Positions 8,697 through 64,000 of a stretch of 64,000 nt of DNA are shown one piece after another. This DNA is from Acidobacteriota bacterium. GTDB taxonomy: Bacteria; Acidobacteriota; UBA890; WLXD01. The notes below the pieces were generated by a model. It ran no database searches and had not been told where the DNA came from. It saw only the letters and a list, made by a program, of their open reading frames with translations. The stretch's first letter is position 1; each line of letters opens with the position of its first letter. The position numbers and the translations under genes are program-made. Location: contig CAXWPH010000015.1 of assembly GCA_963666055.2 (NCBI GenBank), forward strand, positions 1,248,001 through 1,312,000. Reading direction: 5' to 3'.

Positions 8697-8872
8697 GATG
8701 CGCCCTCCTGACAGAAAAGACTGGCGTCGCATTTTGGCCGCCCACGTGAAGCAGGCTAGATGTCGATCATCGCGACCGTCAAGGGACGTTGTAAAATCGC
8801 CGGGGTCGTGATACCGCTCGTTGTGGCAAATGGAAGGAACTGCAGTTTCAGGCTCGACGGATGGAGGGTGGC

Positions 8873-10420: not shown

Positions 10421-10472
10421 GGCGCGCCGAGCCCCCCTGGGTACGACTTAGAGCTCGAGACGGAGGAGTGTC

Positions 10473-23579: not shown

Positions 23580-23662
23580 GCTCGGCGCCAATCCGACTCC
23601 ACCGCGCCGCCCGCGCCGAGCGGTTCGATGATCTCGTAGTGGCCGAGCGTCTTGCCGATCAT
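23580..23662 (-). pseudogene. Ser/Thr kinase N-terminal stub
   Basis: MIGKTLGHYEIIEPLGAGG then diverges; first 33 nt match the kinase start at 63198. Confidence 0.75.
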
Positions 23663-23712
23663 CCTCTTCAACTCACTGGATGTAGCCAAGTGCCCGAAGA
23701 GTGCGTAGTTGC

Positions 23713-24420
23713 TCAGGCGTCAGTGGGGCACCATCGGATCGTGTGGGCTCCCCATCGCTCATCAATGACTTCGATCAAACTGCTGAACTCACCGGTCTCG
23801 GGATCGACATAGAACTCATCTAGAATCACCGGCCGCGGTTCCCAGCCTTTCTCCCCCAGCAGCAATGGTGCCAGCGATTGCCCCTGCACCACCTCGGGCA
23901 TGGAAAGACCCGCCAGGTCCAGGATCGTCGGCAACATGTCGATCATCGACACCGGCTGGCTGAAGCGCTGCCCTGCGGCAATGCGTTCGGGCCACACAAC
24001 GATCAACGGGATACGCGTCACCGAGGGCCTGAACATAGGACCCCAGCAGCGGGGCGGTAGAGGATCCAGCAGACCGAGGTAGAAGTTCTTCTACCCGGCG
24101 GCAACACCATGGTCGGCCGCGACGATCAACAGCGTCTGATCCCACTCACCGGTAGCCTTGAGGCGTTCGACGAGCTGGCCAAGCTGAAAGTCTTGGTGGG
24201 TCATGGTCTCATCGTACAGACCACGAACGATGTCGAAGTAGGCGAGCCGGCTGATACCGGTCTTCTCAAAAGAGGCCGAGTAGGGACCGGCCACTGTCGA
24301 TCTCGAACTGGGGTAATCGCCACCCGCCGCTCGCAGCTGTCGCATCCAGTCCTCGTGGGTCGCTCGCTGGTCGGGGCTAACGAACAGGCCGGCGAATGGA
24401 GCCAGGGGCTGGTGTGCGAT
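23713..24420 (-). pseudogene. Sulfatase-like fragment with in-frame TAG (24091-24093)
   Basis: LYDE...TLLIVAADHG, RIPLIVVWP, VSMIDMLPTILDLAG; both ends missing. Confidence 0.75.
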
Positions 24421-24618: not shown

Positions 24619-24852
24619 GTGTTCGTTGTCTGGCTCGTGCACCCGGACGCTCGCGAGGGCATCGACTTCGATCCCGACAACGTCAAGGCGCTCTGGCACG
24701 TGACGATCCAGGAGGACATCTGGATCACCGAAAACAACCACGCCGGCATCGAGTCCGGCGCCTACACAGCAGGTCGATACTCCAGCCACGAGGGCGGCTG
24801 CTCCGGTTTCATCAGCCGGTACATGAAGGAGATCGTCACGGCTGGGGACTAA
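24619..24852 (+). pseudogene. C-terminal fragment of a third Rieske oxygenase paralog
   Basis: WLVHPDAREGIDFDPDNVKALWHVTIQEDIWITENNHAGIES nearly identical to the C-termini of the genes at 8873 and 57476. Confidence 0.85.
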
Positions 24853-24915
24853 CGCGTCCGAAGTGCTCGTCACAGCAACCCGGGTATGAGACGAGTGGCC
24901 CTGGAGAGCGGTTGC

Positions 24916-39634: not shown

Positions 39635-39686
39635 CCTGCCCCAAGTGTTTGGGCTAATGCGTAACTCATTAAATCGGTGCTGACAA
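39632..39686 (-). mobile_element. IS3-family right-end remnant
   Basis: TGACCTGCCCCAAGTGTT...; 48/55 identical to 48963-49017. Confidence 0.65.
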
Positions 39687-39692
39687 GAGATG

Positions 39693-39820
39693 GTCGCAGC
39701 CGACGGTCAGCGTTTCGTGATGTTCCCCGCCCCAACCGGAGCCAGTCCCGCAGCGGCCACGTGACGCTGGTCACCAACTGGTTCGACGAGCTGAAGCGGC
39801 TCGTGCCGACGGATCAGTAG
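39693..39820 (+). pseudogene. C-terminal tail of a kinase/TolB-propeller protein, frameshifted
   Basis: VAADGQRFVM...HVTLVTNWFDELKRLVPTDQ*. Confidence 0.75.
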
Positions 39821-40477: not shown

Positions 40478-42730
40478 CTATGGATCCGTCGGCACGAGCC
40501 GGTTCAGCTCGTCGAACCAGTTGAGCACGACCTGCAGCTCGGTTCCCTGGGGCACCGCGCCCTCGCTCATGACAAACTCTTGTCCGTCAGGAGTGATGTC
40601 GAAGAGATGTGATCTCGGTGCAATATGGACATTAAATCGGCCTCTTGTCTCAAACAGCCGGCGGGGCTTCCCAGGGGAGAAGCCCGAGTCATAGCTGACA
40701 TCAACGACCATCATCGCCCACACCCCACTGGTCATGTAGTAGATCGCACGCCCATCCCTGGACCACATGGGCCAACCCCCGATCACGGTCGAGATCTGTG
40801 TCCTTTCGCCCGGCCCTGGATAGGGCTGCACATAAGTGTGGAACTCGCCTGACTCATTCGAGTGGTAGACGATCCACTTCCCATCCGGCGAGAACATGGC
40901 GCCGCTCTCATGAGCCGCGGAGACGGCTAGATCCAGCGGCAGCCCTCCCTCTTGTAGAGGCAGGAGCCGGATGTTCTCTCCGGTCTCTGGATGGTTCTCT
41001 TGGTAAGCGAGGACCTCACCGTCAGCCGACCACGACTGCGGGTATATGGGGTATTCGGCCTCCAGGAGTTGTCGGGCAGTCCCGCTGCCATCAGAGGGCC
41101 GTATGACGATTCTCCAGCGATCACCGTCGTGGGAACTGTGCGCGATGGATCGCCCATTCGGCGACCAGACGGGAGCGACGTTGATCCCTGAGAACGGGCG
41201 TTCGGAAAACGTTCCACGTTCCATATAACCGATCCAAATCTGACGCTCTCGACTGTCTCCGTGCTCACAGGCAATGGCCAGTTCTCGGCCGTTGGGTGAG
41301 AGTCTCGGGCCCGCACAATGGAGACCACTCGGAAGCGGCAACGACCGGCTCACGCCATCATGACTCACGGCGACGGCAACGCCCAAGCCGGAGATAACGC
41401 CCAACGACTTCACCAAGGGTTCGTAGTAGATGAAGGTGCCCATATCCGAAACATCGTAGTCCCACACCTCGTCGATGAGCCGGACCTCTTGTCCATAGGC
41501 TTCAAGGCTAGAGAGGTCGAAGGGCCGCGCCCAAAGGGCCAAATTATGATAGCTCTTCCAATAGACGAGATGTCCGGTCGGCACGTATCGGGCGCCATAG
41601 GCTGATTCCAACACAGTCTTTTGTTCGCCTGTCTCGAGCGAGACCACAGCCGCGCCCAGGACGACACCGGTCTCAGGCCGAAAAACGCTAAAGAGCACCG
41701 TCTTGCCGTCAGGCAGTATCGACGCCCGGCGATGGTCACCGCCTTTGCTCGTGTCTATGGTGGTCAGCCTTCTCGGGCTTCCCCCTTCAGCAGACACGAT
41801 GTGAAGACCCGACGAGTCGCCGTAGACAATGCCGCGTGCTCCCCACGCCTGCACACTAGCCTCGAAAGTAACGAAGATCCCAAGCGAGACTGGAGTGCTC
41901 CCATCCAGTGCGACCTTCTTGAGTTGGGTCCCCTTCGCAAATGCCACCCAGTTGCCGTCGGGAGAAAACGCAAAACGACGACCCGGGACCCCAGGTATCG
42001 GACTGAATTCGCGCTGATCCAAGGTCCTGATAACAAGCTGCGGTCTGAGTCCTCCTGAGCGGTACGCCACTCGCGTACCATCGCGCGAGATGTTGGGCCA
42101 GTCGGAGTAGGGCAAGTCCGACGGGAGGGACATCGTCAGGTGAACGGTTGATTGCGCAATCCGATCGTTGCTCGATTGGCGCCACAGGGCAGTGGTGACA
42201 GCGGCGACAGCGGCCAGCAGGACGACAAGGGTCCATGCGATCGGGAGCTGGTGGTGCCGAGCGATGGCCACGACCTGAGCGATGACTCCGGAGATCTGCG
42301 AGGCAAGCTGTGGAACTGCGCTGTCCACGGCCGTCTCCGGCTGGACCGTTGATATCGGAGCAATAAATCGGTACCCACGCCGGTGCACAGTCTGGATGTA
42401 CGTAGGCCGATGCGGATCGTCTCCGAGCTCCTGCCGGAGAATCTTGATCGCCTCGCTGAGGGAGGTTTCGGCCACGACGGTATCGGGCCAAACCGCATCG
42501 ATTAGCTCCTGTTTGCCGACCACCTCCTCCGGTTGCTGAAGCAGGTACTCCAGGAGCGCGAGAACGCGGGGCGGGAGTGAAGTTGCCCGCCCGTTCATGT
42601 ACAAGAGGCGATTGTCTGGCTCAAAGCGGTAGCACCCGAAGGCCAGGGCCCCTGAAGACTTACGGACGCGCCCCGCCCCTGATCCGCCGGGGCGATCTCG
42701 ACTTGACGCGTTGGCCGGCCGGTCCTTCAT
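40478..42730 (-). CDS. CadC/OmpR-type winged-helix regulator with TM helix and TolB-like (PD40) beta-propeller
   Basis: LIDAVWPDTVV...LRQELGDD...YIQTVHRRGYRF; TM segment; SPDG repeats; VLNWFDELNRLVP. Confidence 0.9.
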   Translation of the reverse strand: MKDRPANASSRDRPGGSGAGRVRKSSGALAFGCYRFEPDNRLLYMNGRATSLPPRVLALLEYLLQQPEEVVGKQELIDAVWPDTVVAETSLSEAIKILRQELGDDPHRPTYIQTVHRRGYRFIAPISTVQPETAVDSAVPQLASQISGVIAQVVAIARHHQLPIAWTLVVLLAAVAAVTTALWRQSSNDRIAQSTVHLTMSLPSDLPYSDWPNISRDGTRVAYRSGGLRPQLVIRTLDQREFSPIPGVPGRRFAFSPDGNWVAFAKGTQLKKVALDGSTPVSLGIFVTFEASVQAWGARGIVYGDSSGLHIVSAEGGSPRRLTTIDTSKGGDHRRASILPDGKTVLFSVFRPETGVVLGAAVVSLETGEQKTVLESAYGARYVPTGHLVYWKSYHNLALWARPFDLSSLEAYGQEVRLIDEVWDYDVSDMGTFIYYEPLVKSLGVISGLGVAVAVSHDGVSRSLPLPSGLHCAGPRLSPNGRELAIACEHGDSRERQIWIGYMERGTFSERPFSGINVAPVWSPNGRSIAHSSHDGDRWRIVIRPSDGSGTARQLLEAEYPIYPQSWSADGEVLAYQENHPETGENIRLLPLQEGGLPLDLAVSAAHESGAMFSPDGKWIVYHSNESGEFHTYVQPYPGPGERTQISTVIGGWPMWSRDGRAIYYMTSGVWAMMVVDVSYDSGFSPGKPRRLFETRGRFNVHIAPRSHLFDITPDGQEFVMSEGAVPQGTELQVVLNWFDELNRLVPTDP

Positions 42731-45520: not shown

Positions 45521-46444
45521 GTGCTCGGCAACCTGCGGATATCGAGGAAGTTCAATCGCGCCGATGTCTGGGGGACACGGCGGTTCGCCATTGTCGCAAA
45601 GGGCAGTTACGGCTGGGGAGTCGTCGATACCCGAAGACCCCGCAACCCGAAGGAGATTGCCAAGTTAGGGCTGCTGGCCGTGAATGACGTGAAGGTGGAC
45701 GGCTCCCTCGCGGTGGTCACGAACGAAGCGGGGTTCGTCGGCGCCGGAGCGATCTTGTACGACCTTACCGATCCTTTCCGCCCATCGGAGCTGTCCCGCA
45801 TCACCCACGAGAGTGCCTTGAGCGTACACAACGCCTACCTCGACGATGGCGTTCTGTATCTCTCTTCCTACACCACCGGCAATGTGGAGATCTTTGACGT
45901 TAGCGATCCCAGCGCGCCGCGACACCTCGCCTCGGTGTCAATGGCCGCCGGCGACGTGGGGGCGGTGCAACTCGGTAGCAGCGGAACCGGAGAGACCCAC
46001 AGCGCCTTCAAAGGGGTGGGAACCGCCACTGAGGTCGGGCCGAACCGCGTGCACTGGTCCGGAACTTATTGGGGACACAGTTTCAACAACGAGGGTGATG
46101 GGTTGCTCCACAACACGGTCTGGAACTGTCCAGCCGCATCAGACATATCAGACGGCGTGGTGGACTTCAAAGGGTACTGCACTGTTACAGATCCTGATGG
46201 CGACAAGATCTACGGGAGTTGGAGTGGCGGTGGTCCTGTGACGGGCGAGATCACCGGCATCCTCGAATGGACCGGTGGCACGGGCAAGTATTCCGATATT
46301 CAAGGTGGCTTTGATTTCCAGTGCCGGGCCGTCGGTAACGACGACCAGCTGCAGGGCATGCGCGTCGCGGCTACTTGCCTACCGTCTAGTCCGTCGCAGC
46401 CTATCGCAGGCCCGCAGTTTAGCAAGAAGTCGGCGCGTCTCTAG
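45521..46444 (+). pseudogene. Chimeric ORF: LVIVD-repeat fragment joined to a fragment of a small beta-barrel hypothetical protein
   Basis: ILYDLTDPFRP, VHN, VEIFDVSDPSAP; then CTVTDPDGDKIY, TGGTGKY. Confidence 0.55.
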
Positions 46445-46692
46445 AAAAGCCGATGGCGATAGTACCGACGTCAGTTCACAGGCGCGAAACCGATTCTCAA
46501 CGCCTCGGATAGCCTGGAGGACACATCATCCGGCCCAGCTCGCCGCTCGCGCGACCGCGGCATCTCCATTGTGTGGACCGACGTATAGCGTGTGGTTTTG
46601 CGCCCCCTGGACCTTCGCATGGCTTGACGATCTGTGCGTTAGATCATCACCTGTCTCAGAAGAAGCCGCTATTGGGATTCTCCAAGCGTCTC

Positions 46693-48921: not shown

Positions 48922-48962
48922 TGGATTCCTCCAGTCCAGACATTCTCGGTTTTGAAGAACAT

Positions 48963-49042
48963 TGACCTGCCCCAAGTGTTGAGGCTACTTCGTAACTCAT
49001 AGAATCGGTGCTGGCAACGTCGCTTCCGGTGCAGGCGGCCGA
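48963..49042 (-). mobile_element. IS3-family right-end remnant with transposase C-terminal tail
   Basis: Terminal TGACCTGCCCC; minus strand reads RPPAPEATLPAPIL*, resembling IS3 OrfB ends. Confidence 0.7.
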
Positions 49043-51576: not shown

Positions 51577-53252
51577 TTAGATCTCGTTGAAGTACCCGTA
51601 GTTCCGAGGCACCAATTCGGTCGCGGCACGATAGCCTTCGTCCATCGCCGCCTGCGCGAGGCTCAGGCCGGCCGCGTCGGAGTTCGCGATGGTGATCCTC
51701 CCGAACGGCTGATGACCCACGACCGTGGGGTGGTTCTCGCCCGTCCACTCGGCGGGATCGAACAGCGCGTTGGTTCCCATCGCGAACCCGTGCGGCCAAC
51801 GATTGATCGTGATGGCCTCGATGTCGCGGGCGGGATCGAAACCGCCGGGCGAGAGGACTCGCGCGAGCTGCTCCCGGATCCGACGCTCGAAGTCCTCGAA
51901 CGAGGTCCCCAACATATGGGTCCGAAGCGCCGCGAGCTGCTCCCGGAGCGGAGTGCCGGGCGCGGGTGGATTGCCGCCGAACAACTCCCGAACCATGGTG
52001 CTGTGGTGCAGAACACCGGACGGGCTCTGCAATCCCACCAGCGCGGGCTTAGCAGGGTCGAGCTCCGGCCGGTATGTGCCGAAGTGCCTCGGTGTACGGA
52101 GATTGAACGTGTTGTAGAACATCCCCGGGCTGTCCACTCCGGTAATGCCCAACCGTTCGAACGACGTCCAGGTCCGAACCAAGACCGTGGTCATCATGTT
52201 CACCGCCCGGTCGGCGAGGAGGAGTGCCTCCCGCTGCTCGTCGGGTAACTCCGGACAGATGTACGGAATCATCGAGTTGTCGCAGGCGAGAATGGTCCCC
52301 TTCGAACGAACCCGGTACAGCCTGCCCGCCCGAACATAGGTAACTTCGGTCTCCCGATCGTCCGTGCGCAGGCGGCCGACGGGTGCCTCGCCCAGATGCT
52401 TGACCTGAACGGCGATGCTGTTCAGCCGGATCCTCACCGGCGTGCTCGGCTCGTCGAGCTTGGAGTAGTCCGCGCGATCCAGGACAACGTCCGCCATTCG
52501 GCCCGCCGGCAGGACGGCCGGAATCAGAGAGCGAACGATGAGTCGCGCGATGTCGGAGTTGCGCGCTCCGACACGGGCGTCCGCACGAGGAAGTCGTGCG
52601 TCGGTTGCGAAAGACCGCCACCCGTGACCAGGCGGTCCTCCCCGAACGTCTCCCGGTCGAAGAACGTCCCTCGCACCATCCCCCGGCTACGGAACGCGCC
52701 TGAATCCACTATGTTTGTGGGCTCGTCGAGCTCGACACCGATATCGCGGAGCATGGCCATGACCGGCGCGGGGTAGGTCATGGCCCGAACCATGTAGGAC
52801 GACCCCCCGTTCGAGATCAGCGTCCCCGCACTTGTCTCGAACTCGTTTCGCTTGGCGTGGCCGCCGAAGTCGTCGTGATTGTCGAGGATCAGGATCCGAG
52901 CTTCCGGACCCGTCATCTGACGATAGAAGTACGCCGCGGCCAGACCGCTGAAGCCACCTCCGACGACGATGGCGTCGTAGCTTTCGTCGACAGTTGCCGC
53001 GCCTTCCCAGTTGGCACCGTCGCGCGTCCTGTGTGCCGCCTCGAAGGACCCCGGATGGGCCCCGCGCATCCCTGTTCGGAGAGGCGGGTAGCTCTCGGCG
53101 TCACCTGGTCTGACCTGAAGCGACGTCGGCGCCGGGGGCCGGGTGATTCCCGGGATCACCATGGCTCCACCCACCACGGCGCCGACCCCCGCAACGAAGT
53201 CCCGACGCTTGATCGGTCGATGCATCCCCAATGCGCGATCGTTGTCGTTCAT
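51577..53252 (-). pseudogene. Spermidine dehydrogenase (SpdH)-like Tat flavoprotein, broken by an internal deletion/frameshift at about 52562
   Basis: KRRDFVAG Tat motif; YPPLRTGMRGAHPGSFE; VGGGFSG; DNHDDFGGHAKRNEF; ITINRWPHG; GRITIANSDA. Confidence 0.82.
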
Positions 53253-53261
53253 CTGCCCTCC

Positions 53262-53996
53262 CTAGTCGAGGACTGCCTGGTGTAGTGCGACGAGCTCCGC
53301 CATGCCCGCTACCTCGAGGTCCGGTGTCGCGCCCTCACCTTCCACCGGCGGCGTGGCGCCCCATCCTTCGGATCCTCTATGGCGATTGATCCACATCGTT
53401 GTCAATCCCAAGGCCTTCGCAGGAACGATGTCGTGGAACAGGCTCTGCGCCGTATGCAGGATCACCTCAGGTCCAGCCCCCAAGGTCCGATGCAGGTCCT
53501 CCAGCATGTATTGGAAGTTCCGCACGTCGGGCTTGTAGGAGCCGACGTCCTGCGCAGTGATGACTCGATCGAACTTGACCCCCAGCCGCGACTCGCTTAG
53601 CGCGAAGGAATCGCGGTCGACGTTGGAGAGGATCACCAGTTTGTAGTGCTCCTGGAGATACGCGAGCGCCTCCGGGCTGTCGGGGAAGGCCGGCCACTTG
53701 CCCACGGACCCTCCGAACTCCGGGACCTGCCCCTCGTCGAGCGGTACGGACCACCGCTCCGCGAGCCGCTCAATCACCGACTCGAGGATCTGGGGATAGA
53801 GCTTCTCTGGCGTCTTCCTCTCGCACGTCGCTTCCTCCTCGGCAAAGGCCACCAACAGCGTGTCGTCATCCAGAGTCAGACCGTGTCGAGTAGCCCACGG
53901 CCTCAGCTCGTTGAGGATTCCCGTCTCCCAGTCAATGAGCGTTCCGTAGCAGTCGAATGTGAGGACCTTGAAGTCGCTCAGCTGTTCGGGACTCAT
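53262..53996 (-). CDS. HAD-superfamily hydrolase, haloacid dehalogenase type II-like
   Basis: TFDCYGTLIDWE, LSNVD, YKP, HTAQSLFHD. Confidence 0.92.
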   Translation of the reverse strand: MSPEQLSDFKVLTFDCYGTLIDWETGILNELRPWATRHGLTLDDDTLLVAFAEEEATCERKTPEKLYPQILESVIERLAERWSVPLDEGQVPEFGGSVGKWPAFPDSPEALAYLQEHYKLVILSNVDRDSFALSESRLGVKFDRVITAQDVGSYKPDVRNFQYMLEDLHRTLGAGPEVILHTAQSLFHDIVPAKALGLTTMWINRHRGSEGWGATPPVEGEGATPDLEVAGMAELVALHQAVLD

Positions 53997-54037
53997 AGGC
54001 TCGCCTCGGTGGATTGACTTTTGTGACGTGCGAGTAA

Positions 54038-54057
54038 GCAGGTTGTATACAACCTGC
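54038..54057. promoter_or_regulatory. Perfect 20-bp palindrome GCAGGTTGTATACAACCTGC (GntR/HutC-type operator candidate)
   Basis: Perfect inverted symmetry with TTGTATACAA core, between divergent genes. Confidence 0.65.
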
Positions 54058-54075
54058 GGGTGGTTTCGTGCCCCG

Positions 54076-54137
54076 TGGACCTTCGCATGTCCTGACGATA
54101 GGCTTCAAGCGCTCATCCACCCTTCTGCGGTAGCGCC
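54076..54137 (+). promoter_or_regulatory. Repeated sigma70-like promoter/leader (TGGACC-N17-TAGGCT...GGTAGCGCCATG)
   Basis: Homologous copies at 57734-57795 and 60781-60843; partial copy at 46592-46631. Confidence 0.55.
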
Positions 54138-55820
54138 ATGGAACCCGGCATCAAACTAGGCCCCTACGAGATCACCGAGCAGCTCGGCGCTGGCGGCATG
54201 GGCGAAGTGTCTCGAGTACGCAATACGACGCTGGATCCTGATGTCACTAGCGAGAGAAGGAGTCGGCTGAATCAAACCGTCAGTCGAACGATTGCCGGCA
54301 TCGCTTGCGTGGCGGTAGTGGCGTGCAGCAGCGGCGGAAATCCCTACGCCGACAAGTTCACCGACGTTGATCCGGCCTGGGCGGTCACTGCCGACGAGGG
54401 CTACGAATGGGCGCTGGTCAAAGATGCCAACCTGCCGGCGATGACCGGTAGCCCGGAGTGGAACAACTACGTCGGGTTCCTGGAGGACAAGCTCCGGGAA
54501 TACGGCGTAGTCGACATGCACCGCAACAGCTGGACGTACGATCGCTGGTCCACGACGAAGGACAACAGTGGCTGGTCGTTGGTGTCAGACGGGGCGCCGG
54601 TACGCGTGGCTCATTACGCCATGAACTCCGGCAGCACCGGCCCGGAGGGGATCACGGCGGAGATGATCTACTACGACCACGATAATCCGCCCGACTCCAT
54701 CGAGGACAAGATCGTGGTGTTTCCGACGCGGCCGCACCCGGAACCTCCCTACGACGACTACTACATCAAGAACTTCACCTTCAACGACTACGAGTGGCGC
54801 GCCAATGACGACACGTACTGGGAATTGTTCCAGTTCGTGCCACCGGAGTTCAGCATCACCTTCGATATCTGGTGGCAGCTGCGGCAGAGTTTATGGCGCA
54901 TCGCAGTAGAGGGAGGCGCAGCGGGTCACGTCACCGTCTACGACATGGCCTTCGGGCGTAGCGAAGGACTGGTGGCCCGACCGATACCTCCTCTGTATGA
55001 GTTGCCGGGACTATCTCTGAGCCGTGAGGACGGGGCCAAGGTGATCGCCGATGCCAAAGCGGGCAAGACCGCCACGCTGCGGCTGGAGGCAACCGTCGAG
55101 GCATCGGAGGCCTACCAGACGATCTCGTACCTGCCGGGTCGCGACTACGGCACCCCGGGGGACGAGCAGATCCTGTTGATCAACCACACAGATGGCCCTT
55201 CGATCACGCAGGACAACGGTGCGCTGGGTCTGCTGGCGATCGTCAAGTACTTCTCCAACATCCCGCAGGAGCACCGGCCGCGAACGCTCACCGTCTTCCT
55301 CGACAACCGGCACTACTATCCGGGGCAGGAGCGCGCGGCGCACGAGGTGAGCTGGCTGGAGCGCTATCCCAAGGCCAAGGACCCCCTGGTGGGCATCATT
55401 CAGACCGAGCACATGGGCGAGAACGACTACCGCGAGGCGGACGGCGTGGTCGAGCCGGTGGGACTGGCCGAGCAGTCGTACCTCTGGTCGCGCAACAATC
55501 AGGTGCTCATCGACGCCGCGGTTGCCGCCGCCCAAGTGCATGGCTGGGAGCGCGTGCAAGTGGTGGTACCCGAGCGGCCGGGAATCAACGGCGGCCTGCA
55601 ACAGGTGTGGTGGGGGGTTGGATCCCGGGCTCTGCGCGGCTGCCCGCAGTGCCTCGATCTGCCCGGCTACGGCCTCGGCGGGTTTCTTGGTCTGTATTGG
55701 ACGACGGCGAGTGGGATCGAGCGCTGGAACAAGGACCTGTTCGAGGATCAGGCGCACACGATGACGCAGCTGACCGGTGTGTTGATGACTGCTGATCTCG
55801 ACGAGATTCGACCCGAATAG
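54138..55820 (+). CDS. PA-domain/M28 peptidase-like lipoprotein preceded in frame by a Ser/Thr kinase N-terminal stub
   Basis: First ~36 aa MEPGIKLGPYEITEQLGAGGMGEV...TTLDPDV; then VVAC lipobox, NHTDG, QDNG, TEHMG. Confidence 0.75.
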   Translation: MEPGIKLGPYEITEQLGAGGMGEVSRVRNTTLDPDVTSERRSRLNQTVSRTIAGIACVAVVACSSGGNPYADKFTDVDPAWAVTADEGYEWALVKDANLPAMTGSPEWNNYVGFLEDKLREYGVVDMHRNSWTYDRWSTTKDNSGWSLVSDGAPVRVAHYAMNSGSTGPEGITAEMIYYDHDNPPDSIEDKIVVFPTRPHPEPPYDDYYIKNFTFNDYEWRANDDTYWELFQFVPPEFSITFDIWWQLRQSLWRIAVEGGAAGHVTVYDMAFGRSEGLVARPIPPLYELPGLSLSREDGAKVIADAKAGKTATLRLEATVEASEAYQTISYLPGRDYGTPGDEQILLINHTDGPSITQDNGALGLLAIVKYFSNIPQEHRPRTLTVFLDNRHYYPGQERAAHEVSWLERYPKAKDPLVGIIQTEHMGENDYREADGVVEPVGLAEQSYLWSRNNQVLIDAAVAAAQVHGWERVQVVVPERPGINGGLQQVWWGVGSRALRGCPQCLDLPGYGLGGFLGLYWTTASGIERWNKDLFEDQAHTMTQLTGVLMTADLDEIRPE

Positions 55821-55943
55821 AGCTGACGCGGCTCCTGCTGCCGGAGCCATAGAGTCCCCGGGGTGATCAGCACCGGCGCGGTTCAGAACTAGGCTGCTCC
55901 GTCCCGCTCAGCTACGAGCGTACCTGAGTCGTTGGCGGCCGAA

Positions 55944-57476
55944 TCAGTGGTCGCCCGGCGTTACTACCTCGCTCATGTACCACTTCACGAATCCGGCCGG
56001 GCCCGTCTCGGCACCCGAGTACCGACCCGAGCGATAGGCATCCGAGCGGATCCCCGCGTGGTTGTTGTCGGTGATCCAGATGTCCTCCTGGATCGTCACG
56101 TGCCACAGAGCCTTGACGTTGTCCGGATCGTAGTCGCGGCCTTCCACGGCATCCGGGTGCACGAGCCAAATAATCTCGCAGTCGGTGCGGTTGACGTCCC
56201 GCGGGGTGAACCGCGCGATAGCAACGTGGTCGTCATAGCACTGCCAGTATCCGGTGGAGTGGGCCGTGGTGGCGTTCTGGGTCTCGTGGTTCCATGCGTC
56301 GATGTTCGGCAACAACGGCGCCACAGGCTTTCCGTCCAGCGAACCGGTCACGAAGCCAGGGTTCAGATGCCCTGAGGTCTCCGGCTTGTACTGCGACCCG
56401 TCCGACCCGGCCATTCCATCCATCCCACCTTGCCGATCGCGGCGGGCCTTCTCCGGCACCCAGGCATGGACCTTGGCCGTTTGCGCCGCCAACTGCTGTG
56501 GCGTGGCCTCGTAATCGTAGTGGTGGGTTGTGGAAAGTGCCTGGTGCGATGGCCCGCAGTGGTAGCATTCCTGGAAGTTCTCCAGCGCCAGCTTCCAGTT
56601 GGCCTTGATGGGGTATTGCTCCCGGGCAGCGATCGTCAGGTCGGCCACGCCATAGCGCTCGGTAAGCGCGCGCATCTGTGCAACCGCCGCGTCAAGCTCC
56701 GGCGGCTCTTGCGCCCGTGAGAGGTTCACGAAGATGCTGCCCTCGACCGTCCCGAGGTGGCAGGGGACCAGCCCGTTGTCGGCCGGGTCGAAGTCGTCCT
56801 GCATGCCGTAGGCGTAGATCAGGTTGCCGTCGGTATCGTACGTCCAGGCATGGTAGGGGCAGCGGAATACCGGCGAGCTACCGCTCTGCCCGAGCTGCTT
56901 GACCGACAGGCGCGGGTCGCCGGGTGTCGGGTCGGCATCGTGCCGGCACAGTCGTGAGCCCCGATGGCGGCAGACATTGTGGAACCCTCTCACCTCGCCG
57001 TCGCTGCTTCGCACGATGATGACGCTCTCAGAACGGCCAAACTCGAACACGAAGTAGTCGCCTGGGTTCGGAATGCGACTTTGGTGGTCGACGTACAGCC
57101 ACAGGTTCTCGGCGATGAATCGCTCGTCGGCGAGATAATGCCTCTCGTCGTTGTAGTACTCGCCCGGGATGGTCGTGCGCTCGCGCCAGCCGCCCGGGTA
57201 GCCGTGGCGCGCAGGCTCACGTCGGCGCCCCGCCTCTTGCTCGATGTCCGGGCCGCCGTAGCCGCCGGGATCGGGTGGCAGGGCGGGACGATGGCTCCGC
57301 CCGTAGTTCGGCAGCGCTGCCGCCTCGGTAGCCTTTCCCTCGGCGGCAACTTCACCACGCAGCGTCCCGGGGAGGGCAACGGCTGCGCCGGCAGCAACCG
57401 AGGTCTTGGCAAAATCACGCCGGTTGACCCTCCGGCCGACCACCCCGTGCTTGTTTTCGCTCCGTTCTTCGCCCAT
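55944..57476 (-). CDS. Rieske non-heme iron oxygenase alpha subunit with Tat signal (paralog of 8873)
   Basis: NRRDFAK; NVCRHRG...CPYHAWTY; ENFQECYHCGPSH; QEDIWIT. Confidence 0.9.
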   Translation of the reverse strand: MGEERSENKHGVVGRRVNRRDFAKTSVAAGAAVALPGTLRGEVAAEGKATEAAALPNYGRSHRPALPPDPGGYGGPDIEQEAGRRREPARHGYPGGWRERTTIPGEYYNDERHYLADERFIAENLWLYVDHQSRIPNPGDYFVFEFGRSESVIIVRSSDGEVRGFHNVCRHRGSRLCRHDADPTPGDPRLSVKQLGQSGSSPVFRCPYHAWTYDTDGNLIYAYGMQDDFDPADNGLVPCHLGTVEGSIFVNLSRAQEPPELDAAVAQMRALTERYGVADLTIAAREQYPIKANWKLALENFQECYHCGPSHQALSTTHHYDYEATPQQLAAQTAKVHAWVPEKARRDRQGGMDGMAGSDGSQYKPETSGHLNPGFVTGSLDGKPVAPLLPNIDAWNHETQNATTAHSTGYWQCYDDHVAIARFTPRDVNRTDCEIIWLVHPDAVEGRDYDPDNVKALWHVTIQEDIWITDNNHAGIRSDAYRSGRYSGAETGPAGFVKWYMSEVVTPGDH

Positions 57477-57795
57477 GCCGTCGCCCCGCGCTGCTTGGCT
57501 AGTCCGTGTTGACGTTGCTCCGATGCCGAGATCCTAGTCTGCTCCGATATTAGGCTCGTTCACGACCGATAGCCACGGGTCACCTGCCGGGTCGGTCTGG
57601 GTCAGGACAACGACCCCCGTTTCAGTTGCCCCGGTAGCGCGCCCGGCGGGCGGGACGGCCGCAGATTGAGCAGGTGGATACCGGAAGCGCCGGAGCCCAC
57701 GGGATCCGACGCTGACCAAGTTGAAGACGCCGTTGGATCTCGCCCGCTCCGGCGATAGGCTTCACCCGCTCACCCACCTCCCTCCTGGTAGCGCC

Positions 57796-57903
57796 ATGGA
57801 ACCCGGCACCAAACTAGGCCCCTACGAGATCACCGAGCAGCTCGGTGCGGGCGGTATGGGTGAGGGTGCCGTGGGTGTCCGCCTGCGTGGGTCGCTCCTG
57901 TAG
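57796..57903 (+). pseudogene. Ser/Thr kinase N-terminal stub
   Basis: MEPGTKLGPYEITEQLGAGGMGE then diverges and stops. Confidence 0.8.
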
Positions 57904-57906
57904 CGC

Positions 57907-59676
57907 CTAGCTCTTCTCGACGAGATTCGTCTTGACCGTCCCGTTTACGCTGGCCTTGCGAAAATACGGTCCCCAGCGCTTGCGAATCTTGTTGACCTTG
58001 TCGATGGATGCCTTCGAGGGTGGCTCTCCCGCACGGCCCATCAGGATGAACGCCATGTTGAACTCCTTCGGCGCCTTCTTGCTTCTGGGAGTCCGCTGCC
58101 CTTCCGCGGCGATGACGTCTCCGACGCCCAGGTCCACGCGGTCTCCCGCGAAGGTGATGCCTATCCTCGGATCATCGACCCGTTGGACCCCCGAGCCGCG
58201 TGCGTCCTTGACGTAGAAGAACTTGCCCACCCGCGTCCGCGGAATGAGCCCCATCAGATAACGGTCCAGAGGGCTGTATCGTTCGGTGGCACCGACCGTC
58301 GTAAAGGTCCCGTTGCCGTTGTCCCCGATGTCGTTGCCCTCCATTACCGAGGCATCCGAATCGAAGAAGAAGCTCCAATGTTGGAAATCGCGACCCAACA
58401 GATCGCTGTTGATGGCGCCGCCCTGGTCGCGGAAACGAACGTAGGCGAGCCAGCGATGGCCTACCTCTTGCCCCAGGAGGTCCATCGTCGAAAAGGTAGT
58501 GAGGGGGCGAATGTTCCGATCCGGATCCTCGGGGTATTTCGTGAGGAACCCCATCTGCACGTAGCTCTCCAATCGACCCTCGCTGCCGTAAGAGCGCGAG
58601 AAATCGAACGGATCCAGGCCGATCCCCTCGACCTGGTTCTTGATGTTGAGCTCGAAGGCGAAGGCGCCGTCCAGGGCGGCCGGGGCCGGGAAGTCGAGCC
58701 AGACGATGAGGTGGTCGTACTCGTCGGCGAAGTGACGAAAGAAGGTCTGAGCGATCCCTAGGTCGTCGATCTGCTCCTCGGCGCTGAAGCGCTCGGCCAG
58801 GGCTCTGTCGCCGGAGTCGACGGGCAGATCGGCGTCGAAGTCGATCAGGGCCAGACCACCCCCGCCGCCGGGTGCGACGCCGACCACCGCATCCACCGCG
58901 TCTACCGACCCGTAGGCGACGAGGATGCGGCCGCTCCTGAACAGCGTCACCTGGACCGTGTTCTCGTTGGTGCTACCGAACTCTGGCACGCTGGACCAGG
59001 TGATCTGCATGCTCGTGGAGGTGGTCCTTAGATAGACACCCCCGGTGGTTGCCTGGCTCGGATCCAGATCGATGAACAGGGGCGCGATGCGCGGCGGGCC
59101 GTTGAGGAACCTTCCGAGGCTACGGGTCATGCTGGCGTTGTCCGCCTCCACGAACGTCAGGTTGCCGTCGGAGTTCAGAAAGACGTGTTCGTACCTCGTG
59201 CCGAAGAACGGGAAGTCGAAGCTCGGAAACTCGATGAGAACGCTGTCGTCGTCTTGGATCTCTACCAGAGATCCGAGGTCGTCCTTGACCGGGACGGTCG
59301 AGCGCACGGCGCGAAGGTTATTCTTGCGCCGCTTGAAATTGATGCCCTGTCCCGACAGGTCGAACTCGCTGGGTTCGCTCACCAGCGTCCCATCGTCCTC
59401 GATCACCGCGACGTCGCCGACCTTGGTGACGGCGGGAAGGCTGCGGCCCGGAACGTCGGGCGCGGCAGCTGCGGAAGCCCGGGCTAGCCGCCGAAGGTGG
59501 TCCCGGTGAAAGGCCTGCCGGACGGTGTGCCCGTGGCGATGGGTGCCGCACCATGTGCGCGGGGCCTTGTGCGTAGCGGACGAGGACCCGGGCTGTGGAC
59601 GTACCTCCGAGGGCGGGAGGAGAACCAGGAGCGCAAGCAGCGGGATGAGCTTAATTCTCTTTTCTGGTTGCGCCAT
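57907..59676 (-). CDS. Secreted protein with NIDO-like domain and metallopeptidase-like domain (QEVGH)
   Basis: Signal peptide; WCGT; FPFFG...SDGNLTF...PRIAPLFIDLDP; QEVGHRW...HWS; YSPLDRYLMG. Confidence 0.8.
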   Translation of the reverse strand: MAQPEKRIKLIPLLALLVLLPPSEVRPQPGSSSATHKAPRTWCGTHRHGHTVRQAFHRDHLRRLARASAAAAPDVPGRSLPAVTKVGDVAVIEDDGTLVSEPSEFDLSGQGINFKRRKNNLRAVRSTVPVKDDLGSLVEIQDDDSVLIEFPSFDFPFFGTRYEHVFLNSDGNLTFVEADNASMTRSLGRFLNGPPRIAPLFIDLDPSQATTGGVYLRTTSTSMQITWSSVPEFGSTNENTVQVTLFRSGRILVAYGSVDAVDAVVGVAPGGGGGLALIDFDADLPVDSGDRALAERFSAEEQIDDLGIAQTFFRHFADEYDHLIVWLDFPAPAALDGAFAFELNIKNQVEGIGLDPFDFSRSYGSEGRLESYVQMGFLTKYPEDPDRNIRPLTTFSTMDLLGQEVGHRWLAYVRFRDQGGAINSDLLGRDFQHWSFFFDSDASVMEGNDIGDNGNGTFTTVGATERYSPLDRYLMGLIPRTRVGKFFYVKDARGSGVQRVDDPRIGITFAGDRVDLGVGDVIAAEGQRTPRSKKAPKEFNMAFILMGRAGEPPSKASIDKVNKIRKRWGPYFRKASVNGTVKTNLVEKS

Positions 59677-60547
59677 GTTTTTCACCTCCGAATGGTCGGT
59701 TCGGTTTTAGGGCATCGAAATCGCAGCAGCTGCATCGAGGAATGACCTGTCGAACGATTCGGACCAGCTGATCGCCCGCCTCTACTCCAAGACAAAGACA
59801 GACCGCGATCACAAGGCGCATGGGAGCCACCGAGAGCCGATAGCGACGCCTTCGATTACCCCGTACCAGCCGGACAGTCAACGGAAGGCCGGGCATCGTC
59901 TCGCCACTTGTACACACCAACCGCCTCTCGGGCGTTCAGATCAAGAAGCCCTGATAGTGGATCAGCAACCCATCAAACCAGCCGCTCGACTCGCTGCTCT
60001 ATGTCCATTGTCCACCTCGGCTATGCGTGCTGATCCTGGGCGCACTGTGTTCCGGGGTTGGGGCAATCACAAGGGGTACGGAATCGTCCCGCCCGTGTCC
60101 GTCTCACAGGCACATGGACGAACGCGACTCCTACGACCGCCCGCTCCGCGACCTCACACCTGATCCTCACGCCGTAGATCGCGTCAAGAGGAACGCCGGG
60201 GTTTGCTAGCGTGTCGCAGTTGGCGCGTGACCTCTGAAAACAGGCACTATCGGTCGGATAGCGAGCCGCTATCGCCACGTAAGGCGCACAGATAGCCGCC
60301 TGGGTGCTTCGGGACGGATCAAAGAATGCAGTCGCTCTACGGGCCGCAGAGCGTTTCTTCGTGAAGGCTCGTGCCTGCAAGAAACCGAGCCGCCGTGTGG
60401 GGAAAGCAGGGGCCTGTCGGAGGGTGATTTACTGGCGATTTGGCGTGGGAGTTTCACGCAGCGAGGGGTGACGTGTGGGTGTGGGGTCACCCATAGAGAG
60501 CTGCGTCCATATCGTGCCATTAAGGGCTTCTGGCGGGTGGCGAAATA

Positions 60548-60712
60548 ATGTTCCACAATCACCCCTCGGGTGATCCGACGCCGAGTCGAGAGGACGTCGG
60601 AATCACCCGGCAGATTCTGCAAGCCGGCGAGTTGCTGGGCATTCGCGTGCTCGATCACCTGGTGGTTGGCGCCGAGGGGTTCGTGAGCTTCAAAGAGCGC
60701 GGGCTCCTCTAG
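60548..60712 (+). pseudogene. radC: RadC/JAB-domain C-terminal fragment
   Basis: [14 protein letters not shown]...[13 protein letters not shown]...SFKERGLL*. Confidence 0.8.
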
Positions 60713-60843
60713 CTGCCGACCGTCGGTGGCGCGCTGCAGCACCCTGCTACGGGCGATTCATGTCACGACGGCACCTTCCGTGGATCCCCAAAGGCTCTGG
60801 CGATAGGCTTCAGGGTGCTCACCCACACCCCGCTGGTAGCGCC

Positions 60844-63198
60844 ATGGAACCCGGTACCGAACTAGGCCACTACGAGATCCTCACGCTGCTTGGTGCAGGC
60901 GGCATGGGCGAGGTGTATCGAGCCCGCGATACCACGCTGGATCGTGATGTCGCCATCAAGGTGCTGCCGAAGGACTTCGCCAGTGACGCTGGCCGGCTGG
61001 CTCGCTTCGAGCGCGAAGCCAAGCTGCTCGCCTCGCTGAACCACCCCAACATCGCCACCATCTTCGGGTTCGAGGAATCGGATGGTGTGCGCTTCATCGC
61101 CATGGAGTTGGTGGAGGGTCAGAGCCTCGCCGAGCGGATAGAAGCGTCCGGTCGCATTGAGGTCGATGAGGCGCTAGAGATCGCTCGCCGGATCGCGCTG
61201 GCACTGGAAGCGGCTCATGAGGCCGGTGTCATCCATCGTGACTTGAAGCCGGCCAACGTACAGGTGACTCCCGACGGCACCGTCAAGGTGCTCGACTTCG
61301 GGCTGGCCAAAGCCTACGCAGCGGATGGCAGCGATCCGTCGTCCGGCCTGAGCCAGTCACCCACCATAATGGCCGCCACGGGCACCGGCGTGATCATGGG
61401 CACGGCTCCCTACATGAGCCCAGAGCAGGCACGGGGTCAGCCGGTCGATAAGCGCAGCGACATCTGGTCGTTCGGCTGTGTCCTGTACGAGATGCTCGCT
61501 GGCAAGCGCACCTTCGACGGTAAGACCGTCAGCGACACACTGGCATCGATCCTTAAAGAGGAGCCAGATTGGGCGGCTCTGCCGCAGACGACCTCCCCGC
61601 TCATCCAGCTTCTGCTGCGTCAGTGCCTGGAGAAAGAACCTGATCGGCGACTCCACGACATCGCCGATGCGCGGATTGGCATCGTCAATACCATCAACGA
61701 CCCAGATGGGGGCCTCGGTCTGACGGCTGGCTCGGGTGAGGCTGCGAAGCCGTCTTGGTGGCAAACTATCCCGACACCTGTGGCAGCCGGTCTAGGCGTC
61801 GGCATCGCCGCAGTGACAGCCCTTGCGGTCTGGACCCTGACGACCCAAAACCAACAGCCGCCTGCGCCTCCCATGCACCTGGAGTTGAGGCTAACCGATG
61901 AAGATCTCAACCTAGCTTTTGGTGGAGCCGTCCTATCGCCGGATGGCACGCAGATCGTCTACGTCGCGGGTCCTCCATTCGACCCGGAGTTATACGTTCG
62001 CTCGCTGGATCAGCAAGAGAGTACTCGCCTAGTCTCTGGCTCTGCATTCAGACCGTTCTTCTCCCCGGACGGCCAATGGGTGGGGTTTTTCACCAACTCC
62101 GAACTGAAGAAAGTGCCCGTCTGGGCGGCACGCCTCAGACGATCTGTTCCGTCGATTCTGCTGGACCTCGAGACAGAGGCGCAAGCTGGGGGCTGGACGA
62201 CACAATTATCTTCGGCGGCTCCTCCGGTCTCTACGGCGTGTCCGCCAGCGGGGGGGAGCCGGAACCATTGACTCAACTCGAACAAGGGGAGGTCTGGCAC
62301 GCTTACCCACAGGTGCTGCTTGACGGTAAGGCGATGCTGTTCACCTCCTTCGCGGACGAACGCTCGCCTGTCACCGAAGTGCTGGATCTAGGGACGAGGC
62401 AACGAAGGGTCGTGCAGCAGGGCGGACAGGGACGCTACGTACCCACGGGGCATCTCGTGTATCACGATCAGGGAACCCTGTTTGCCGTCGCGTTTGATCT
62501 GGGAGAGCTGGAGGTCGCCCGATGGAGAGTGGGTTTTCTTCGCGTCGGATCGGAGTGGCAATAACGATATCTTCAAGCGCCGGACTGACCGGAGTCTCGA
62601 CGCCGAGCTGGTGTTGGATACAGAGGCTGACGTGTTGCCGTGGTCGATCTCGGACGACGGTGAGATGCTGCTTTTTGTGAGCGGGAACCTCTCGAATCTC
62701 GACGTGGGGATACTGGCTCTCGATACAGGTGATACGGAAATGCTCGTCGATACCGCCGATATGGAGACTTGGCCCAGTTTCTCGCCGGACGGTCGCTTCA
62801 TCGCCTTCATGTCGAACGAGACCGGGCAGGGCGAGGTGTACGTGCGGGAGGTATCGAGCGGTCGGACATTTCCGGTCTCTACGAGTACCCGCGGTGGTGC
62901 TGCCCCTGTCTGGTCGCGAGATGGAAGGGAGATTTACTACGTCTCCTCCAACAGCCCCGGCATCCTCGTTGCGGAAGTGGATTTGGAGTCGTTTTCCGCA
63001 TCTGACCCTGTCGAAGTCTCGGACATCGCCATGCGTTCCTTTTCCAACTTCGATGTCACCGCCGACGGCCAGAAGTTCCTGGTGACGGTGCCCGCTGGTA
63101 ATGATGAGACTGGGGACACGGCACCCAGCGCACGACTCAACGTGGTCCTCAACTGGTTCGAGGAATTGAACCGGCTAGTGCCGACGGGTGGCTCTTGA
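60844..63198 (+). pseudogene. Ser/Thr protein kinase-TM-TolB propeller gene with a frameshift (about 62120) and an internal deletion (about 62515)
   Basis: GAGGMG, VAIK, HRDLKPAN, DFGLAK, GTAPYMSPEQ; propeller continues in other frames; ends VLNWFEELNRLVPT. Confidence 0.85.
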
Positions 63199-64000
63199 TG
63201 ATCGGCAAGACGCTCGGCCACTACGAGATCCTCGCCCCGCTTGGTGCAGGCGGCATGGGACAGGTGTATCGAGCCCGCGACACGACGCTGGATCGTGATG
63301 TCGCCATCAAGGTGCTGCCAGAGGACTTCGCCAGCGATGCTGGTCGGCTGGCTCGATTCGAGCGTGAAGCCAAGCTGCTTGCCTCCCTGAACCACCCCAA
63401 CATCGCGACGATCTTCGGCTTTGAGGAATCCGACGGTGTGCGTTTCATCGCCATGGAGCTGGTCGAGGGGCAGACTCTCGCGGAGCAGATCAACGCCTCT
63501 GGGCGCATCCCGGTCGCCGTGGCACTCGAAATCGCTCGTCAGATCGCCCTCGCGCTCGAAGCAGCTCACGAGGCCGGCGTTATCCATCGCGACCTGAAGC
63601 CGGACAACGTCAAGATCACGCTTGACTTCAAGGTCAAGGTGCTCGACTTCGGCCTGGCCAAAGCCTACACGTTAGACGGCACCGAGCCGTCGTCCGACCT
63701 GACCCTGTCACCCACCACGATGCAACCCACGGTCACCGGCGTGATCATGGGTACGGCTCCCTACATGAGCCCGGAGCAGGCACGGGGTCAGCCAGTCGAC
63801 AAGCGCACTGACATCTGGGCCTTCGGCTGTGTGCTCTACGAGATGCTGGCCGGCAAGCGTGCCTTCGATGGTAAGACCATCATCGACACCATGGCGGCGA
63901 TTCTCAAAGAGGAACCGGAATGGGGCAGTGTTCCAGACGAGGTGCCGTGGAGAGTCGTCGACCTGTTGCGGCTGTGCATGGTGAAGAATTCCGACCGACG
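63198..64000 (+). CDS. Ser/Thr protein kinase (runs off the window end)
   Basis: MIGKTLGHYEILAPLGAGGMG, VAIK, HRDLKPDN, DFGLAK, GTAPYMSPEQ; TGATG overlap with the upstream gene. Confidence 0.9.
   Translation, partial: MIGKTLGHYEILAPLGAGGMGQVYRARDTTLDRDVAIKVLPEDFASDAGRLARFEREAKLLASLNHPNIATIFGFEESDGVRFIAMELVEGQTLAEQINASGRIPVAVALEIARQIALALEAAHEAGVIHRDLKPDNVKITLDFKVKVLDFGLAKAYTLDGTEPSSDLTLSPTTMQPTVTGVIMGTAPYMSPEQARGQPVDKRTDIWAFGCVLYEMLAGKRAFDGKTIIDTMAAILKEEPEWGSVPDEVPWRVVDLLRLCMVKNSDR

Follow-up and report, generated by a model that had tools for sequence, protein, structure and literature searches.

The DNA considered here is a 64,000-nt stretch of contig CAXWPH010000015.1 (positions 1,248,001 to 1,312,000 of the forward strand, GenBank assembly GCA_963666055.2) from an Acidobacteriota bacterium, referred to at its full length as the window, and the element in question is a short promoter-like module that occurs three times towards its right end. 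In each copy two hexamers are separated by 17 nt, and a leader and the beginning of a Hanks-type kinase gene come after them: the first hexamer reads TGGACC (54076), TTGGAT (57733) or TGGATC (60781), the second is TAGGCT, and CTCA(C/T)CCAC..GGTAGCGCCATGGAACCCGG follows, with the kinase ATGs at 54138, 57796 and 60844 (Table 1). An earlier reading made from the letters alone (the sequence-only reading) had reported modules at 54076, 57734 and 60781 and a half copy at 46592-46631 that matches 54060-54099 at 35 of 40 positions, and both observations were borne out when the sequence was checked. It had also held that only the last copy leads into a full kinase domain; the domain at 60844 is indeed whole, but the open reading frame (ORF) ends at 475 aa, before the propeller is complete, and a conserved C-terminal tail can be followed to about 63200. 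An intact kinase of this family has about 900 aa, with a PF00069 domain, a stretch that reads as hydrophobic, PD40 repeats of the propeller and NWFDELKRLVPT as its C-terminal tail. The nearest database relatives are mostly labelled Acidobacteriota, which makes this the likely phylum of the host.

We use the term 5' stub for a promoter-like module or upstream gene end together with the start of a kinase–β-propeller gene that is broken before the end of the domain; the mirror class, the 3' stub, is a kinase tail piece of less than 1.5 kb, and break positions are counted from the kinase ATG. The left flank of module 1 joins, from about 54056, the upstream region of a HAD gene, a junction that is absent from four congeners (G001-G004), in which the HAD upstream region carries no module. 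Stub 1 continues in frame into a 560-aa ORF for an M28-like peptidase, the cargo at 54246..55820, for which no Pfam match was found. This cargo has a 96% identical copy in G001, where an upstream TTG stands for the CTG of the window, and the junction is kept there (locus L005), though with another stub allele and with the stub internally deleted. A minus-strand stub at 23662, also listed in the sequence-only reading, is present, reads MIGKTLGHYEIIEPLGAGG and then breaks; however, it has another start type, lacks the promoter module and lies behind the 3' end of a sulfatase gene.

The genome under study (G000, contigs C2, C6, C13 and so on; completeness 95.7%) was searched with a DNA profile built from 43 whole kinase domains, which gave 158 matches, 128 of them covering the start. 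Seventy-one starts are broken before the domain end and, after removal of one divergent intact kinase, 70 5' stubs were counted beside 48 starts with a whole kinase domain, 19 with an ORF of at least 850 aa and 29 without a long ORF. A tail profile gave 98 matches which, once a palindromic double had been removed, comprise 33 full ends and 64 short pieces, the 3' stubs, with a median length of 116 bp. The phenomenon is therefore not limited to 5' ends, as had been supposed: the 64 promoterless 3' stubs are equally common, and one of them, in the window at 39693-39820, had been missed. If a 13-kb inverted duplicate on contig C8 is left out, the counts become 70 5' stubs, 62 3' stubs, 46 whole-domain starts and 31 full ends. 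The hexamer–spacer–hexamer pattern matches 72 times in the genome and 0 times when read backwards, so that the module is not due to chance; its outer edge is sharp, at about -66 to -72, and at the other end of the gene a near-identical 35-nt tail is found in 62 copies.

Breaks in the 5' stubs range from -16 to +479 with a median of +76, and 63 of the 70 lie within 200 bp. A uniform spread over the kinase domain, which the sequence-only reading had proposed as the sign of ordinary decay, is rejected (Kolmogorov–Smirnov p about 1e-27). When 60-nt slices from 18 congener kinases were searched again with the profile, recovery was 75-100% from +30 to +630 and lower beyond, and the bias towards short breaks is therefore not a detection effect over most of the domain. 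Breaks at 70-110 bp after the ATG had been described for the window, which holds for stub 2 (+70) and for stub 1, recognisable to about +108/+111, but not for the genome-wide range. Nor did the proposed tie to the GxGGMG loop survive the census, since the breaks are spread widely and only a mild excess falls near the loop (18/70 in +45..+80 against 10.5 expected from a fitted exponential); a bias in the reading frame of the breaks was discounted as an effect of alignment ends.

The remnants form arrays. Consecutive pieces within 10 kb lie on the same strand in 143 cases and on opposite strands in 14 when all pairs are counted, and setting aside the C8 duplicate together with 34 adjacent pairs and 28 pairs that belong to one gene leaves a ratio of 79:14, which exceeds the 64% strand concordance of island genes (p=7e-6). 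With gene calls from our own hexamer model, exactly one gene was found in 41 of 70 gaps between pieces. Cargo after 5' stubs is on the same strand in 45 and on the opposite strand in 24 of 69 cases; before 3' stubs the numbers are 28 and 36. A domain scan of 63 of 125 picked proteins (57 beside stubs and 6 at the Ku locus) revealed mainly hydrolases, dehydrogenases, sulfatases, peptidases, pyrroloquinoline quinone (PQQ) and flavin oxidoreductases, receptors and a few other kinases, and no toxin or immunity variants of the kinase's own system. The same cargo was found at different loci behind different anchors, and several arrays adjoin tRNA genes. About 130 kinase-end remnants, mostly pointing one way, are set between single unrelated enzyme genes, and crossovers inside them have likely built integron-like arrays without a dedicated enzyme.

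That 5' ends are hotspots at which cargo is exchanged, as the sequence-only reading proposed, is upheld by comparison of stubs with one another. Twenty-seven stub pairs share junction and cargo, and upstream DNA is unrelated in 24 of them; the pairs fall into 14 groups, or 13 without a pair that shares only an insertion sequence (IS) end, and upstream DNA has changed in 11 of the 13. Conversely, 23 pairs share the outer flank: 11 of these set a full kinase against a stub, 5 are stubs with different cargo, 5 are both full and 2 are the same. The same upstream DNA can thus carry a full kinase in one genome and a stub with cargo in another. At C14:334011, for instance, the upstream DNA is shared with locus L056 of congener G004, where the kinase is full, and from about +27 on the sequence matches locus L028 of G002. 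Two loci of the genome under study, C6:315305 and C15:796523, differ up to a point within the -35/-10 spacer, after which they are 99.85% identical over 3.2 kb, and C14:44351 and locus L033 of G002 carry different kinase subtypes to the left of the AIK motif and 96% identical cargo to its right. In these three aligned cases the allele switches within the stub or module, namely near +27 in the first, between the two hexamers in the second and, in the third, at the AIK motif near +112, which we read as crossovers at these places, and the alignments indicate that crossovers inside kinase-end remnants have moved cargo genes between loci. There is no fixed crossover point, as both the breaks (-16 to +479) and the three switches fall at different positions. 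Among 12 intact genes synonymous identity is highest at the ends (0.68 and 0.75 against 0.37-0.68 between them), and in the non-coding tail stubs decay has gone no further than in comparable full tails (median of 1 mismatch in 36 for both); the two observations agree with continuing exchange or with a recent origin.

How the cargo was joined to a kinase end can be seen where the donor is still present in the genome. The joins at such places are illegitimate; 42 junctions were listed in all, many with older donors. C2:110916-112191, a 1,277-bp stretch with a truncated gene, has a 99.45% identical copy between two kinase pieces on C13; at another junction, a 2.3-kb copy abuts a 3' stub at a common CTGAA. 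Clean joins show overlaps of 1, 1, 2, 6 and 10 nt or insertions of 1-23 nt, given as raw lengths, and some stub breaks coincide with the ends of an IS or of a miniature inverted-repeat transposable element (MITE). At a 3' stub junction (C2:332152 and C2:374778 compared with C6:299983) a short stretch from downstream of the donor is present in inverted orientation, as expected from template switching or multi-fragment joining.

The stub pattern is shared within the genus. Three congeners show it, and the promoter pattern has 72, 45, 32, 22 and 3 matches in the five members of the genus, the last of which is in 240 contigs; in 36 other genomes it has no more than 4 matches, as does its control. 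The congener sample of 80 loci (1.47 Mb), picked around matches to the promoter pattern and to the window, holds 67 5' stubs, 39 whole domains and short tails, with a co-orientation of 103:6, trivial pairs included. At 75 loci around related kinases in other genomes, 102 full domains were accompanied by 8 stubs and 29 full tails by 2 short ones, whereas the same method applied to 25 stretches of the genome under study gave 21 stubs per 37 full domains and 27 short tails per 31 full ones, so that stub density at the other kinase-bearing loci is 7-13-fold lower.

Repeat-induced misassembly, the other objection raised with the sequence-only reading, has next to no probability as the origin of these junctions. 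Contigs from separate sequencing runs (X1, X2 and X4) belonging to two studies, one of which is possibly the source, cover 52859-54146 and 54174/6-54475 with 0 differences, and because contigs of other runs bridge the window junctions these are not assembly errors; moreover, separately assembled congeners hold identical junctions. The contigs of four runs, which drop rare variants, contain no alternative joints at 98% likeness, and joints seen at 90% had short sides, were gone at 98% and were not used. The one feature that speaks for misassembly is the near-perfect C8 duplicate (99.9% identical, C8:29538-42541 and 53958-66961), which reaches the contig end and is possibly an assembly artefact.

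We suggest that a kinase–β-propeller family which has been amplified and is largely dispensable provides, in its conserved outermost 100-300 bp at either end, homology anchors through which single cargo genes are added or swapped in islands, a reading to which we assign a probability of about 0.6. At the junctions described above, cargo DNA, sometimes a 99-100% copy from elsewhere in the genome, is linked at varying points to the start or end of a kinase, by anything from a 10-nt overlap to a short insertion; Ku-LigD is a candidate joining enzyme. Crossovers in the stub or module, visible as mosaics and presumably made by RecA, then move the junction and its cargo beside another kinase copy, in the same genome or in a congener. 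The moving unit might be a fragment or circle with cargo and one kinase end, such as a complete cargo gene, end-joined or captured, that runs briefly into the adjacent kinase, and a single crossover beside any resident end would duplicate that end, keep the orientation and enlarge the anchor pool. Later crossovers would reassort the cargo, and deletions, as found at three loci, trim the remnant. ComEC-mediated uptake is a candidate source of fragments, and promoter donation may be a side benefit in some cases. RecA, Ku, a full-length LigD and ComEC are encoded in the genome, which speaks for their availability only.

Several observations weigh against this proposal or limit its reach. Most ends of blocks shared with congeners (552/685, 81%) lie away from any kinase piece; for 91 of the 685 (13%, with 4.2% expected by chance) a piece is present on the congener side, and for 34 on both sides. 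Cargo-to-cargo joins of the same illegitimate kind also occur, and the joining process is therefore not specific to the kinase. On both grounds general island mosaicism dominates, and the kinase ends appear as a hotspot rather than as the main shuffling route. Remnants at orthologous loci differ in length (369/260/67 bp, 1350/183, full/516), and with erosion so directly visible part of the short-length bias must be ordinary decay. A 3' stub follows a 5' stub no more often than the share of these pieces predicts: 18 of 42 same-strand followers are 3' pieces, close to their 35% share, and specific replacement of the gene's middle, giving 5' stub, cargo and 3' stub, was rejected. The best match of a stub is rarely the neighbouring kinase, which fits import and shows no local duplication, and local target duplication was rejected on the same ground; simple internal deletion joining both ends was likewise rejected, with only 2 clear cases among 70. 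No circle or excised form was seen at 98% likeness in the contigs of the four runs, which drop rare variants, and, because the arrangement is identical with 0 differences in two studies, the process must be slow rather than a programmed switch. Other paralogue families of the genome (11-31 members) have 0-3 orphan end fragments each, a comparison that favours the kinase partly through detection bias, since the ends of the control families are less alike at the DNA level. Finally, the decay simulation used below is a crude one, and detection is harder for propeller fragments than for ends.

Much of this would also be expected if the arrays were the product of ordinary birth-and-death decay in hyper-mosaic islands, in which kinase genes, being abundant and dispensable, collect insertions and deletions, erosion leaves the ends, stub crossovers are incidental and orientation is inherited from tandem kinase clusters. 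The 29 of 48 starts without a long ORF, the unequal remnants at orthologous loci, the internally deleted stub in G001, the 81% of block ends away from pieces, the IS and MITE ends at some breaks and the few stubs in other genomes (8 per 102 full domains) all agree with this explanation, as does the share of integrase loci (15 of 28) with a kinase piece no more than 10 kb away, against 23% for the genome. What makes it unlikely as the full account is that among 70 stubs there are only 2 behind which kinase sequence clearly resumes (a loose cut-off gives 6, and 5 in a reversed control), whereas in a simulation of in-place decay, confined between kept genes, 8 of 9 regimes left a further kinase piece after 24-93% of the short stubs. 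Low values arose only where 45 or 6 of 1,500 dead genes leave a stub, and the simulation thus matches only if at most 3% do so, for which more than 2,000 dead copies would be needed. Internal fragments are also concentrated before +350, upstream DNA has changed in 11 of 13 junction groups, stubs are no more decayed than full tails and their density exceeds that at other kinase-bearing loci 7-13-fold.

Promoter capture, by which genes placed behind a strong kinase promoter and ribosome site are selected and stubs persist as portable promoters, had been part of the sequence-only reading. The module hexamers match the sigma-70 consensus at 6-7/12 positions, so that a strict sigma-70 scan finds no site, and a promoter role is a prediction from sequence; the 17-nt spacer, however, is kept in 65 of 72 pattern matches across two alternative first hexamers. 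A same-strand gene follows 32 of 42 promoter-bearing stubs against 13 of 27 other stubs (p=0.02), which lends the idea some weak support, but islands as a whole reach 64% and the share does not exceed this background (p=0.11). A convergent gene lies opposite 24 of 69 stubs, and the 64 3' stubs are promoterless. Eight stubs are in frame with ORFs of at least 390 aa, yet as a selected outcome in-frame fusion was set aside, 8 of 45 same-strand cases being not obviously above a rough chance estimate. Several distinct upstream pieces precede the PQQ gene at no more than 50 bp from its ribosome site, and this and the CTG of the M28 cargo for the TTG of G001 would suit promoter capture; no conserved covarying RNA structure was found in the module, and a structured RNA was rejected with 6 pairs, none of them changed on both sides. 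On balance we consider promoter capture improbable as the driving force. A dedicated capture system, in which an integron-like tyrosine recombinase, HUH nuclease or phage recombinase uses module and tail as attachment sites, seems very doubtful. The sharp outer edge, the near-identical tail, the single-gene spacing with co-orientation and 29 tyrosine-recombinase matches enriched near arrays would all suit it, but inner breaks and crossovers fall at many positions, and the outer edge is not a constant junction because outer flanks are often common to subsets of copies. No intact integron integrase was found in the genome with TIGR02249: the best match (149 bits against a cut-off of 265) is a broken piece of 105 C-terminal positions that contains a stop and lies some 28 kb from the nearest array. 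A crude scan for RYYYAAC..GTTRRRY with folding gave 10 attC-like matches genome-wide and 0 within 10 kb of a piece, and there is no RecT or Y1 transposase match in the 95.7% complete genome. For a MITE or Pack-type transposon with captured genes, terminal inverted repeats and a target-site duplication would be expected, and none stood out by eye when the outer ends were aligned.

The proposal of homology anchors can be set against known systems. Integrons hold arrays of mostly single accessory genes between co-oriented repeats, with a promoter from outside the cargo, and the kinase arrays likewise place mostly single genes between co-oriented repeats; however, they have no intact IntI, no attC-like hairpins at the arrays and no fixed crossover point, and their cargo lies on both strands. 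Islands integrated at tRNA genes leave a duplicated fragment of the target at one end, grow by tandem accretion and have a fragment that ends at a fixed att core. The kinase arrays resemble them in having a gene fragment at the end of added DNA, and many lie beside tRNA genes and integrases, but kinase fragments end anywhere from -16 to +479, with no single att core. IS26 translocatable units add a repeat with adjacent DNA beside a resident repeat, giving arrays of unique genes, and this incorporation is RecA-independent and needs Tnp26 (PMC4196232). Unique segments between directly oriented repeats are present here too, whereas the repeat is a variable-length piece of a PF00069 kinase/PD40 gene rather than an intact IS, there is no transposase and crossovers fall at varied points of homology. 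Homology-facilitated illegitimate recombination has been proposed for the immunity arrays of type VI secretion systems and for Rhs orphan modules; in these proposals a one-sided homologous anchor and an illegitimate join add foreign genes and displace part of a resident gene, and repeated rounds build arrays (PMC5361080, PMC2884548). The one-sided anchor with an internal crossover is found here, in the three aligned switches and the 24 of 27 unrelated upstream regions. In those systems, however, the anchor is one locus and the cargo consists of effector or immunity variants of the same system, whereas in the kinase arrays more than 100 dispersed anchors from both gene ends, which are themselves multiplied, take up unrelated genes for catabolic enzymes that face either way. 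The minimal mobile elements of Neisseria (PMC3787668) are alike in swapping gene content by homologous recombination in conserved flanks; they differ in that their flanks are intact single-copy genes at fixed loci and replacement is two-sided, while in the kinase arrays the flanks are short dispersed paralogous remnants and cargo moves between loci. The kinase arrays are thus neither integrons nor IS arrays nor att-bounded islands, and by analogy their architecture resembles IS26 units or Rhs orphan arrays but without the enzymes of these systems; the chemistry would correspond to that of homology-facilitated illegitimate recombination. In the literature searched, with most subscription journals outside its coverage, no description of kinase-end anchors was found.

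A bolder version of the proposal, which we offer only tentatively, is that one genus has domesticated the two ends of an ordinary receptor-kinase gene as att-like anchors, which recombination keeps uniform, such that end-joined fragments of cargo and anchor could integrate beside any of more than 200 resident ends. This would amount to a self-amplifying, enzyme-free capture platform in which selfish spread of the anchor provides an integron substitute for scavenging enzymes. If the self-multiplying step is true, the copy number of a signalling family may depend in part on what its genes offer as landing pads and not on the protein that they encode. An open question in the evolution of accessory genomes is how bacteria take in entirely foreign DNA when neither integrases nor transposases are at work, and most of what is known about homology-facilitated capture comes from a few toxin loci and from experiments on transformation. 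With about 130 junctions per genome, near-identical donors within the genome and visible crossovers, this genus makes rates, microhomology and the roles of RecA and Ku-LigD countable. At a practical level, the stubs create false kinase N-termini on unrelated proteins (8 in-frame fusions in the genome under study) and break short-read assemblies.

Table 1. Features of the window, with the stretches bridged by contigs of sequencing runs X1, X2 and X4
Feature	Position	Strand	Remarks
Sulfatase 3' end and promoterless MIGKTLGHY-type 5' stub	23606..23726	-	break +56; stub at 23662
3' kinase stub (…VTNWFDELKRLVPTDQ*)	39693..39820	+	tail profile; behind M14 peptidase gene and IS3-like end
Repeated upstream piece	46410..46631	+	sequence repeats; ends in left half of module (46588-46631)
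Promoter-like module 1	54070..54137	+	TGGACC 54076-81, 17 nt, TAGGCT 54099-104, leader
5' kinase stub 1	54138..54245	+	MEPGIKLGPYEITEQLGAGGMGEV, degenerate to about +108/+111; in frame with cargo ORF
Cargo: predicted M28/PA-type peptidase, lipoprotein-like signal	54246..55820	+	translation
Cargo: Rieske ring-hydroxylating oxygenase alpha subunit	55944..57476	-	domain scan
Promoter-like module 2	57727..57795	+	TTGGAT 57733-38, 17 nt, TAGGCT 57756-61
5' kinase stub 2	57796..57865	+	break +70; faces 3' end of convergent gene
Cargo: uncharacterised protein	57907..59676	-	opposite strand; resembles clusters with NIDO domain in 22-44% of members
radC 3' fragment	60521..60713	+	shortly before module 3; itself a repeated piece
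Promoter-like module 3	60775..60843	+	TGGATC 60781-86, 17 nt, TAGGCT 60804-09
Kinase–PD40 propeller gene, whole kinase domain	60844..63200	+	frameshift in propeller; ORF stops at 62271
Second kinase, MIGKTLGHY-type	63198..64000	+	overlaps previous stop (TGATG); intact 886-aa ORF extends beyond window
Module 1 left junction	52859-54146		bridged by X1, X2, X4
Stub 1/cargo junction	54174/6-54475		bridged by X2, X4
Stub 2 junction	57825-57955		bridged by X2
Kinase 60844 stretch	61425-62504		spanned by X1, 0 differences

Some of these features recur elsewhere. The upstream piece at 46410..46631 is present in three tandem copies in G004, each leading into a module (locus L006, 6936-7144, 10189-10397 and about 12967-13187, some 3 kb apart), and these lead, in order, to a stub, a full kinase and a promoter-only copy; short direct repeats before the piece in G004 recall what we take to be integrase arm sites. 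In the genome under study the PQQ gene is inverted relative to this piece. The sulfatase 3' end and kinase start (23663-23726, minus strand) are conserved together and recur at six other loci as an anchor-like unit. The radC 3' fragment (60521-60713) is repeated at C15:73482-73645 and C15:2122246 and at 8683-8842 and 12094-12285 of congener locus L008; two such fragments 3.4 kb apart enclose cargo in G002, and the fragment may be a second anchor of the same kind. A 57-bp end (TGACCTGCCCC), which presumably belongs to the IS3 family, lies at 39630-39686 and 48961-49017 and has 14 genome copies, often directly before cargo or stubs.

Further observations concern neighbouring genes and other repeats. 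A winged-helix (Trans_reg_C) protein encoded at 40478-42730 on the minus strand shares the propeller and C-terminal tail of the kinases, likely through a domain swap. The Rieske oxygenase has paralogues in the window (8861-10420, 24626-24856 and 55944-57476), the orphan 3' piece at 24626-24856 being 83% identical to 10196-10424. The broken intI fragment (C10:50422-50736) lies beside a small gene pair that resembles an antitoxin and toxin, as annotated from the translation. Eleven '5' fragments' of paralogue family 18, considered as a sign of a second stub-bearing family, proved to be a separate 73-bp upstream repeat; it is found at C12:445401-445473 and 14 other places, upstream of several unrelated genes, and may be a portable regulatory piece. 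A Lys-Glu-Thr tRNA cluster is duplicated at 99.8% identity beside two different arrays (C7:18700-19226 and C10:20556-21078).

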